Assembly: GCA_038523235.1 (NCBI GenBank)
Contig: JBCBJQ010000035.1
Span: forward strand, 1-51,828
From: Cyanobacteria bacterium J06626_4
GTDB lineage: Bacteria > Cyanobacteriota > Cyanobacteriia > Phormidesmidales > Phormidesmidaceae
Reading direction: 5' to 3'
Length of the DNA: 51,828 nt
Made by a program: the position numbers. Below, piece by piece: positions 20,726-23,700 of this stretch. How positions within the stretch are numbered: position 1 is the stretch's first letter; the number at the start of each line of letters is the position of its first letter.

Positions 20726-23700
20726 GTGCGGTTAACAGCCGCCAGCTCCACCATTGAGCTATGGGGCAATGTATGGGAAGTGACAGGATCGAACTGTCAT
20801 CTCGCCGTCTTCAGCGGCACGTGAGCACCAGCTTCACCAACTTCCCATTTGGCGGAGAGTAGAGGAATCGAACCCCTAGCTGTTAACTACCCTGGTTTTC
20901 AAGACCAGTTGCCGACCATTCAGCGGTACCCTCCATGAAATGGCGAGAACGGAAGGATTTGTTCGCGTGAGCGTCTCCGTTAGGAGAAACCTTCAGTCTT
21001 CGGTTTCGTAGACCAAGATGTTTTCCAGTTACACCACGTTCTCATCAGGCGGAGAGCAGTGGACTTGAACCACAGACGCCAATCCCATCTGTTTAGCAAA
21101 CAGCGCCGATCGCCTGATCGGTTTACTCTCCATAAATTTAGACAACATCAGTACGGGATAAGAGAGAGCCTACCTGCCTAGTCGATGTTCCCCTCTCGGG
21201 AGGGGTTAGGGGTGGATTTCCGGCTCATTGCCAAGGGGTTGACCCACCCCGGCCTATGGCCACCCCTCCCATGGAGGGGATATTTCAGCCAGGTTTCTTT
21301 AACCCATACTCAGGTTAGACAGGTGGGCAGGGAGGGACTCGAACCCCCAACGGTCAGGGACGACTGGTTTACAATCAGCCTGCTTCAGCCATTTGCATAC
21401 CTACCCATTTGGCAGTGCTGATGGGAGTTGAACCCACAAACATCGACTTGAAAGATCGACGGCTTTACCAATTTGCCTACAGCACCGAGAAATTTCTACG
21501 ACGTCCGCCGTAGAACGCACAGACCAGGATTTGAACCCGGACAAAAGGTTTTGGAGACCTTTGTGCTGCCGTTACACCATCTGTGCTGGTCGCAGCGGCG
21601 GGAATCGACCCCGCACCTGTCGGCTTATGAGGCCGCAGCTCTACCGTTAAGCTACGCTGCAGTGGACTCCAGGGCGGGAGTTGCACCCGCGATTGCTGGT
21701 TTTGCAGACCAGCGCCTTGCTAACTTGGCTACCTGGAGATTTGGTGGAGACGTGGAGAATTGAACTCCAGTCCTGCAGCCGTCCATTTGTCGGTTTCGGA
21801 GCAGTCAACTCCAGTTGCGTCCCCACGCACGAGGATGACCTGCTTCTGAGCAACATCCTCAACATGGAAGCCTCGACGGGAGTTGCACCCGCTGCTCTGT
21901 GACTGAGAATCACAGCGACTTATCTATTCGTCCACGAGGCTATCAATAGCGGTGGCGGGACTTGAACCCGCGAGTTACCCGGCACCTTAAAACGCGCTTC
22001 CCCAACCCACATCTCTGCTTCGTCAGGTGCACTGCAAATTCGGCGATCCGGCTGCCCCTTACGTGTAATACCTGGGGGGCTATCCTCCAGCTGGTTCAAC
22101 GTTTGCTGGCGCTCTACCTCCTGAGCTACACCGCTATACGGGAATGATGGGATTTGAACCCACGATCGCTCGTTCGACAAACGAGTGCTTTGACCGGACT
22201 AAGCTACATCCCCAAGGTGGCAAATATTTAGTTTTCAAGGTTCTAAGGGCAGATTGTCAGCGCTGGGTAAGAGCGTGAAATCTTTATACTACAAATGTAG
22301 TATACATACTACAAAAATGTCAAGCGAATCCTTTGACTTTTTGGGAGAGGGCTGAGCAGGGCCTGGGCATAAGGGCTGAAGACCCTACTCATAGATGGGG
22401 CTCAAGCGGAAACCGGAGGCTCGCTGAGCTGCCACAGTCGATAGATGAGTGATTCGGCCCGCTCACCAATTGCCGCTAAAAACATCCCCTCGTGAGCATC
22501 GGGGTTGGCGGCAATCCAGCTGCCGCTGAGGCTGATTTCGACAAACTGGTCGTCGACAGGCAGCACTGCGGCACCGCGATCGGGCTCAGCTTGTAGTACG
22601 GTTTGTAACTGACCCAGCTCAGCAATTTGAGTGGGTAGCAAAAAGCCAGCGTGGCCCGGTTCTACATGCAAGGTCTGGGCCATGCCCAGCGTCAGCAGTA
22701 CGTGCTGAGCAATTACCCGCTCGGGAGCAGCCATGAGCCACTCCATGTAGAGTCCAATTTCGGTGTAGTTCAGCTTCAACATGGGTAAGACCTCCGAGAA
22801 TGACAACTTAGTCAGGGGGATGTTCGGTCCAAAACTGTTCGGCAAAGGCCATGACCGGGTGCATGGGGGCTTTGGGTTTGGTTTTGAGGGTCAGATTGGC
22901 CGTCGGTAACAGGCGATCGCCCTTGGCGCTATTGCACGGGGCGCAGGCTGTGACGACGTTGTCCCAACTGTGGGAGCCGCCCTTAGAACGGGGTATGACG
23001 TGGTCAATGGTGAGCTGTTTGGAGCTGCCGCAATACTGGCAACGGTGCTGATCCCGGCGAAAGACTTCCCGGCGCGTCACTGGGGGCACTTTCCAATGCC
23101 GCTCACGATGGCCGCCCACCAAGCGAATGTGTTCTGACACCTGCAGGACGAGGCTGGGCGATCGCACCTCCCACTGTTGAGTAGTGCCAAACTCCAGAGC
23201 CTCAGCCCGTTCGGTCACCAGCAACACGACGGCTCGCTTTAAGGTGATCCGCGCCAGGGGCAGGTAGTTTTTGGAAAACACCACCACCGGATTTTTGAAC
23301 CGGGAGAGCGTTTGACTGGCTTGTTGTGTAGGCATCGCTAAATTCCTCAAAAAAATAACCCCCGCTGCTGATAGTCAGTAGCGGGGGTTGGGGAAGTTGA
23401 TACGTTTTTCCCTATATCGGTGCTCGGCTCAGCTGCCTGCACCGCCCGCGCGGTAATGGTTCTTCGGGGTTGAGCCATTGCTCAATGGCCATACCCGGTC
23501 TGTTGCCGGTGGATTTATCACTGTTAAATCGCGACTGTGCAGCCAGCCCAAAATAGGCCGCTGTCTGGCCTATCTCCTGAGGGAGATGGCTTGACAGAAC
23601 CCGATTTAAGGTGGATGGACAGTTGAAATACATGACCGGTTGATCCGTTACTTGAACGCGGATGATTTTAATACTACACATGTAGTATTTTGATGTCCAC

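Follow-up and report, generated by a model that had tools for sequence, protein, structure and literature searches.

An 83-nt gene in a cyanobacterial tRNA array is, with very little doubt in our view, a real tmRNA reduced to its tRNA-like domain (TLD), of the class represented by Mycobacterium phage DS6A. It was found in a 51,828-nt stretch (contig JBCBJQ010000035.1 of Cyanobacteria bacterium J06626_4), all of which is called the window below. The best explanation of our results is that cyanobacteria keep a DS6A-type TLD-only tmRNA under a translational-stress promoter. As the preliminary description had proposed, this mini-tmRNA would be tag-less, probably chargeable with alanine and tied to a translational-stress operon, a view supported by its anatomy, by covariation, by a copy in Nostoc PCC 7120 and by promoter boxes.

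The tmRNA model RF00023 matches the whole gene at 52.2 bits (cmscan, gathering threshold 47), covering model positions 1–374 with 24 nt in place of 316 of them. The previously proposed coordinates, strand, score and 24-nt replacement, together with the G3:U70 pair, D-loop, T-arm and encoded CCA, were all recovered. Both alanine identity elements, G3.U70 and A73, are present, as are the SmpB-contact bases A15, U17, G19 and the A334 equivalent. The D-loop further contains C21, ends in GAC, carries U at C18 and may form a weak stem of 3–4 bp. As judged by the minimum free energy fold and pair counts, the place of the pseudoknots and tag frame is occupied by a helix-2 stub, and the GAC-to-GGAC spacing is 30 nt. 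The stability of the fold is modest by thermodynamics alone (z -1.97). A general TLD-only pattern matched once in the genome and not at all in the reversed genome, so the match is not due to chance.

Table 1. Features of the window that bear on the mini-tmRNA gene (coordinates within the window)
Feature	Coordinates	Strand	Remarks
TLD-only (tag-less) tmRNA gene	21742..21824	-	83 nt, CCA encoded; RF00023 52.2 bits
Acceptor stem, 5' strand	21818..21824	-	G3 = 21822; acceptor of 7 bp
tmRNA-type D-loop	21805..21817	-	G13, G14, A15, U17, G19, A20 (E. coli numbering)
Helix-2 stub	21773..21804	-	4 bp + 3 bp, AAA/A internal loop, 2-bp CC/GG cap, 7-nt loop
GAC connector and T arm	21753..21772	-	A334 equivalent; GAC lies within GGAC
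Acceptor 3' strand, discriminator A, CCA	21742..21752	-	U70 equivalent = 21748
tRNA L-array holding the mini-tmRNA gene	18921..22214	-	23 tRNAs by ARAGORN and further degenerate ones
tRNA-Cys	21663..21738		flanks the mini-tmRNA gene
tRNA-Glu-CTC	21865..21941		flanks the mini-tmRNA gene
tRNA-Arg(CCG) relic	21830..21860	-	internally deleted, directly upstream of the mini-tmRNA gene; intact in L010 and L012
Array promoter	22286..22323	-	TTGACA and three TGTAGTAT boxes (TrcR-type operator)
Conserved leader motif	22230..22243	-	single copy in the genome; also upstream of stand-alone mini-tmRNA copies
HNH endonuclease gene	22808..23350	-	upstream of the array; Pfam HNH
alr0857-family gene	22402..22845	-	NF045647
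Gene of a 243-aa protein	17966..18697	-	no known family
RtcB RNA ligase gene	15339..16520	-	downstream of the array; Pfam RtcB

The standard 5'-3' order of the TLD, the tmRNA-model score and the lack of tag frame and pseudoknots place the gene in the TLD-only DS6A type; without an mRNA-like domain (resume codon, tag, stop) it does not qualify as a standard tmRNA. A permuted two-piece tmRNA was ruled out by the standard order, with RF04321 reaching only 22 bits, below 47. The gene is not a tRNA (e.g. tRNA-Ala) either: it lacks both a canonical D arm and the anticodon arm of a tRNA (5-bp stem, 7-nt loop), ARAGORN made no call at the gene, and the GAC/GGAC junction is of tmRNA type. A remnant of an ssrA integration site (att) was rejected because both halves are present and the acceptor and T stems are unlike those of the host tmRNA; a BLAST search of the genome returned no other match to the mini-tmRNA. 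Also discarded was a separate coding partner, a 189-nt tRNA-framed RNA upstream with a short frame starting Ala-Asn, since this frame is broken by a 1-nt deletion in loci L010 and L012. As previously reported, the host has a full one-piece tmRNA; it is present once (contig C10, 93777-94162, tag ANNIVPFARKAAPVAA), alongside a single smpB gene, ArfB and a gene of NFACT/RqcH-like type.

Structural conservation was assessed on 49 cyanobacterial loci, from which 48 matches (43 distinct) were aligned to a model built from 13 of them. The fold composed of acceptor, helix-2 stub (4+3 bp), AAA/A loop, CC/GG cap and T arm is paired in 98.6% of cells. Double changes occur in 9 of 21 pairs, above shuffles (0–3/500) and all slid controls; these counts lean high because the alignment was fitted to the tested structure and the sequences are related. 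The acceptor, helix-2 and T stems covary among the cyanobacterial homologues: the acceptor helix is 99% paired, with double changes in four of its seven pairs, and the T stem shows them in three of five. The D-like stem (96% paired, one double change) is weakly supported. G3.U70 is found in 41 of the 43 distinct copies and A73 likewise in 41, at positions lying outside the search patterns used for this set, and the adjoining acceptor pairs covary.

The inner hairpin UCCG/UGGA of the preliminary description turned out to be misdrawn, with no double changes, a performance no better than shuffles and a stability lower by 4.9 kcal/mol, in contrast to the supported CYG/CRG pairing with its CC/GG cap. 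The invariance of the inner loop, formerly held against decay, is partly built in because most homologues were found with an inner-loop pattern. What stands independently of this pattern are the five BLAST matches and the PCC 7120 copy, which is only 69% identical overall yet agrees with the consensus over the inner 17 nt and shows compensating helix-2 changes.

As described before, BLAST detected homologues with 88–95% identity in five of the 172 other Phormidesmidales genomes; a sixth match of 24 nt was discarded, having no tRNA genes around it. The array start is present in 24 other genomes of the order, about 21 of which have the array across the mini-tmRNA slot, and the gene in five. An even sample of the phylum gave 6 of 401 genomes (reversed control, 0). 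The gene was further found in 44 of 251 genomes of family f7, with 14 of 14 in genus g102, and in 23 of 90 genomes of family f15. Including the source genome, this makes at least 73 genomes in three cyanobacterial families, a lower bound from exact patterns, with loci returned for 30 of the 44 and all 23 genomes of the two families, respectively. Metagenomes provided 26 loci. A covariance-model search of phylum genomes, insensitive with only 29 candidates per genome scored, gave 4 of 151. Among five carriers checked, four have a full tmRNA and all five smpB.

In the window, the gene lies between tRNA-Cys and tRNA-Glu of the array, as first described, with the tRNA-Arg(CCG) relic also in between. 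Contigs from one sequencing run carry a related array, with six changes within the mini-tmRNA gene. Five exact TGTAGTAT boxes, as defined in PMC10272220, are present in the window against 0.37 expected, and those over the array promoter are of the kind that marks the TrcR regulon. No trcR gene was identified in the neighbourhoods of the boxes examined in this genome, and no sequence search aimed at TrcR was made. The leader motif resembles rRNA-operon boxA. Among the neighbours, the HNH gene is described as a conserved L-array neighbour (PMC8421152) and the alr0857 family as a TrcR regulon member in PCC 7120 (PMC10272220). A T-loop mini-insertion, noted earlier in three homologues, is not specific to the mini-tmRNA: three ordinary tRNAs of the window's array carry such insertions, and insertions of 22–26 nt occur in ordinary tRNAs of these arrays. 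We take these to resemble small cyanobacterial mobile repeats.

By reading the gaps of the array, a copy was located in Nostoc PCC 7120 (NC_003273.1, 51736-51819, minus strand, 84 nt) between tRNA-Glu-TTC and tRNA-Tyr of the trn operon, where RF00023 gave only 23 bits, below the cut-off; of the four Nostoc plasmid arrays examined, the other three lack the gene. According to the two trn-operon papers, this operon has 26 tRNA genes (PMC8421152, PMC10272220), gives a single transcript induced 100–1000-fold by ribosome antibiotics and processed to 70–100-nt RNAs, and aids survival (PMC8421152), with TrcR as repressor (PMC10272220). The response also brings induction of toxin RNases and RtcB, a sponge role has been proposed for the operonic tRNAs, and the authors were unable to account for the survival benefit through codon matching (PMC8421152). 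In the supplementary data of PMC10272220, the trcR mutant shows no co-induction of smpB (log2FC 0.35, padj 0.11) and a small decrease of ssrA (log2FC -0.45, padj 0.03).

Most copies in family f7 have no array around them and directly follow the same promoter and leader, ahead of any other gene. Of 29 such stand-alone loci, two of which appear to be one organism, 23 have an exact TGTAGTAT box in the 200 nt upstream, compared to 1 of 84 control windows. The 243-aa protein of the window has a homologue encoded within 1.5 kb after 18 of the 29, and four of five extended loci have VWA, ThiF or L7/L12-like genes downstream. When 78 loci were compared, the D-loop still ended in GAC at 30 of the 35 classed as non-array (fewer than four tRNAs within 1 kb, a definition that may take in short contigs) and at 15 of the 43 borne by arrays, the other 28 lacking it. 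The T-loop is broken in 12 of 43 distinct rows and the 5' acceptor strand is missing in some. The window copy is of the intact type.

The general TLD-only pattern gave at least 120 loci in viral contigs, with 95 distinct sequences among the matches listed. At pattern-free positions of these 95, the acceptor, T stem and helix 2 are paired in 99%, 99.6% and 95% of cells, respectively, compared to 47%, 45% and 43% in a shuffled-partner control. Their length is narrow, 81–83 nt in 67 of 95, and 66 of 95 share with the window RNA an A-rich loop and cap motif (six on average in shuffles). At 98 of the 120 listed viral loci, no tRNA gene lies within 1.5 kb. In 185,579 species genomes the same pattern returned only 26 loci, of which three are tRNA clusters outside the cyanobacteria. 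Neither a BLAST search of phages with the window RNA nor an exact search of viral contigs with the cyanobacterial inner-loop pattern gave a match. The DS6A gene has the same layout as the viral class and the window RNA; the molecule is therefore of a known, mostly viral kind.

As to function, we tentatively prefer, at somewhat less than an even chance, that the mini-tmRNA is a stress-induced, alanine-charged SmpB partner which clears non-stop ribosomes without a tag. De-repression would yield the operon transcript, from which the mini-tmRNA would be cut out like the adjoining tRNAs. AlaRS, for which G3.U70 is the determinant (PMC3985003), would charge it through G3.U70 and A73, and the charged RNA would bind SmpB and EF-Tu; the known SmpB contacts are A15, U17, A334 and G19, and binding is lost in a G19C mutant (PMC8363625). 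On ribosomes stalled on a cut mRNA, the complex would move into the vacant A site, the nascent chain would be transferred to it with addition of one alanine, and translocation would expel the broken mRNA. With no frame to resume, the complex could be resolved in several ways: a further TLD round (giving a short alanine tail), ArfB, full tmRNA or splitting of the subunits. The expected gain is rescue without decoding, cognate tRNAs or a cleavable mRNA-like domain, at a time of blocked elongation and active toxin RNases. In vitro, a TLD together with SmpB makes polyalanine on template-free ribosomes (PMC2481249 and PMC3929946, citing Shimizu and Ueda 2006). Rescue is also in agreement with the intact SmpB-contact bases of the window copy, which comprise pocket and stacking positions, and the GAC kept in most non-array loci, with the homologue in the antibiotic-induced trn operon, with the ArfB and NFACT/RqcH-like genes of the host, and with the stand-alone copies, which behind their TGTAGTAT box head a module with L7/L12 paralogue, VWA and ThiF genes. 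Against it stand the tmRNA and ArfB already present in the host, which leave no obvious need for another route, the frequent loss of GAC in array loci, the copies with a broken T-loop or no 5' acceptor strand, the retention of the gene in only 5 of about 21 related arrays and in one of the four Nostoc plasmid arrays, and the inhibition of tmRNA by an engineered TLD in E. coli.

A second possibility, which we regard as real although rather unlikely, is a stress-induced inhibitor of trans-translation that drains SmpB (and EF-Tu), sparing stalled complexes, truncated mRNAs and nascent chains during RtcB repair. An engineered TLD-like molecule strongly inhibits E. coli tmRNA whether chargeable or not, perhaps by SmpB titration (PMC4131195, citing Mao 2009), and the class is mainly viral, where blocking of host pathways is common. 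The flat smpB and slightly reduced ssrA of the trcR mutant are a weak hint fitting titration, although so small a shift in ssrA could have arisen in many ways. Switching off rescue under antibiotic stress would also be costly. Since inhibition works without charging, the conserved alanine identity points to alanine delivery, and for this reason rescue is favoured over titration. The two readings overlap, because any induced TLD competes for SmpB, itself not co-induced; a rescuing mini-tmRNA would necessarily also compete with full tmRNA for it.

It is improbable, in our judgement, that the RNA acts independently of SmpB as a tRNA-like decoy or repair substrate, through its inner loop, either as a toxin-RNase sponge or as partner of co-encoded proteins. 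Such a role would suit the array copies that have lost G19/A20 and still keep stems and inner loop, the PCC 7120 copy with its pattern-independent consensus inner loop, and the co-induction of toxin RNases and RtcB with the sponge role proposed for operonic tRNAs (PMC8421152). The SmpB-contact bases are nevertheless kept in the window copy and most non-array copies, and the inner-loop invariance is largely a product of the pattern searches. We think it very doubtful that the gene is a mere passenger without function, left over from a phage or from a decayed tmRNA and transported by a mobile array: this fits the patchy retention and the damage in many copies, the relics of the array (the deleted tRNA-Arg-CCG and three tRNAs with T-loop insertions) and an identity to orthologues about equal to, and no higher than, that of the adjoining tRNAs, but not the stand-alone loci, where the gene remains first behind the promoter while tRNAs are lost, nor the pairing and double changes beyond all controls, the presence throughout genus g102 and the narrow viral lengths.

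Combining rescue with the viral class gives a broader proposal, which we advance as speculative: a phage-type TLD-only tmRNA may have been domesticated by cyanobacteria as an inducible fourth ribosome-rescue route, in which SmpB-dependent, template-free alanine tails on 70S ribosomes under translational stress would clear non-stop complexes without decoding and would, rather than extra tRNAs, provide part of the trn-operon survival benefit. If so, the host would have taken over a mostly viral RNA class. The mini-tmRNA is in any case a new candidate for the benefit left unexplained by codon matching. Its role is directly testable because the gene sits in the trn operon of PCC 7120: conditions that induce this operon are established, strains with the operon deleted or its repressor mutated are available, and a phenotype in competition has been described. 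It also exposes an annotation gap, as tRNA and tmRNA finders overlook such genes (ARAGORN is silent here).

A natural tmRNA reduced to its TLD is not new, contrary to what was first claimed. That of phage DS6A (tmRNA Website tmID 11587) has been published with the same architecture (PMC4131195, PMC11915505), and PMC11915505 gives nine 'standard, no CDS' one-piece sequences, naming DS6A, two plastid genes and mitochondrial forms; no cyanobacterial case is named in the part of that paper concerned. In the portions of the literature covered, natural TLD-only tmRNAs amount to one phage case, besides the E. coli inhibition result. The main texts of the trn-operon papers (PMC8421152, PMC10272220) contain no mention of tmRNA, ssrA or SmpB, and no cyanobacterial or array-borne TLD-only tmRNA was found in listings and abstracts of the open-licence literature. 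These searches suggest that the new part is the host stress-regulon setting of a known RNA form, a setting unpublished in the literature searched.

The window RNA resembles the DS6A RNA in length class, G3.U70 acceptor, tmRNA D-loop, T arm, lack of tag frame, a helix-2 stub of about 7 bp, A-rich internal loop and CC/GG-capped hairpin. Unlike DS6A, a lone phage gene, it is host-encoded in a tRNA operon, is preceded by a promoter of TrcR type, and has an inner loop of its own and an encoded CCA. The surroundings share gene order, HNH and RtcB neighbours and the TGTAGTAT operator with the cyanobacterial L-array or trn operon, as far as described in PMC8421152 and PMC10272220. With standard one-piece tmRNA (RF00023) it has in common the G3.U70 acceptor, D-loop GAC, GGAC connector, T arm and helix-2 start; it lacks pseudoknots, resume codon, tag frame and a stop codon for release and, in contrast to this housekeeping RNA, is probably inducible. 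CDS-less organellar tmRNAs (jakobid/oomycete mt-tmRNA RF02544 and Mallomonadaceae plastid forms of about 65 bp) are likewise natural and without tag frame, and are thought to help with incomplete mRNAs (PMC11915505). These stand in for the full tmRNA and are mostly permuted genes, whereas the window RNA coexists with a full tmRNA and gave no RF02544 match by cmscan. RqcH and RqcP add alanine without template to stalled chains, RqcH working on split 50S subunits with tRNA-Ala. Template-free alanine addition is also the predicted outcome for the mini-tmRNA which, unlike RqcH, would work on 70S ribosomes via SmpB.

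The stand-alone mini-tmRNA genes, homologues of the 83-nt tag-less gene which lie outside tRNA arrays behind a TrcR-type promoter and leader, share more with the tRNA array of the window than the RNA itself. Such loci (L265-L269, L181, L208 and L216) carry further odd tRNA-like RNAs, whose anticodon is often called CUA, and then encode a small protein of 60-70 aa, a homologue of the window's 243-aa protein, a paralogue of L7/L12, a VWA protein of 477 aa and a ThiF protein. The 243-aa protein gene is tightly linked both to the tRNA array and to stand-alone mini-tmRNAs, and its product found no match when compared with Pfam and NCBIfam. 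These loci constitute an undescribed TrcR-type translation-stress module.

The leader motif of the array also precedes stand-alone copies (for example, L216 and L225). It resembles the boxA of rRNA operons and has a hairpin before it, an arrangement that suggests antitermination of the array. Additional tandem copies of the operator box, TGTAGTAT, are found in genome G000; they precede genes for an ABC transporter and for a protein like GNAT acetyltransferases (labels assigned by eye), both of which are candidate members of the array's regulon.

Features of the array, its surroundings and its operator boxes
Feature	Location	Strand	Remark
243-aa protein gene	window 17966-18697	-	
tRNA-Arg-TCT	window 19001-19097	-	T-loop hairpin insertion
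tRNA-Gln-CTG	window 20570-20690	-	T-loop hairpin insertion
tRNA-Arg-ACG	window 20944-21043	-	T-loop hairpin insertion
tRNA-Arg(CCG) relic	window 21830-21860	-	internal deletion left a hairpin
tRNA-framed RNA, 189 nt	window 21947-22135	-	between tRNA-Asp and tRNA-Glu-CTC
Leader motif	window 22230-22243	-	preceded by a hairpin
Tandem TGTAGTAT boxes	G000 C13:17630-17639	-	
Tandem TGTAGTAT boxes	G000 C77:1627	+	

Within the array, tRNA-Arg(CCG) is reduced by deletion; it is undamaged in the related arrays L010 and L012. The T-loop insertions measure 22-26 nt, and insertions of this kind are seen again, at an identical site, in many array tRNAs and mini-tmRNAs. The 189-nt RNA has an A1-U72 acceptor and complete D and T arms, but its anticodon-like arm is odd and roughly 100 additional nucleotides form two hairpins. 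It is 86-99% identical across six related arrays; against Rfam only its T arm was matched, with no family for the remainder. It occurs in the mini-tmRNA-carrying arrays of the source genome's family, and also in genome G158, which has no mini-tmRNA.

In the draft genome G352, which has smpB, the tmRNA-model search returned the mini form only, and the missing full tmRNA probably reflects an assembly gap.

Beyond cyanobacteria, TLD-only tmRNAs of only 65-73 nt with an encoded CCA were observed outside tRNA clusters in several Saccharibacteria genome bins (L139, L143, L146 and L151). Others (L141, L153 and L157) lie within tRNA clusters of non-cyanobacteria; thus, the setting of a TLD-only tmRNA in a tRNA array also arose outside cyanobacteria.
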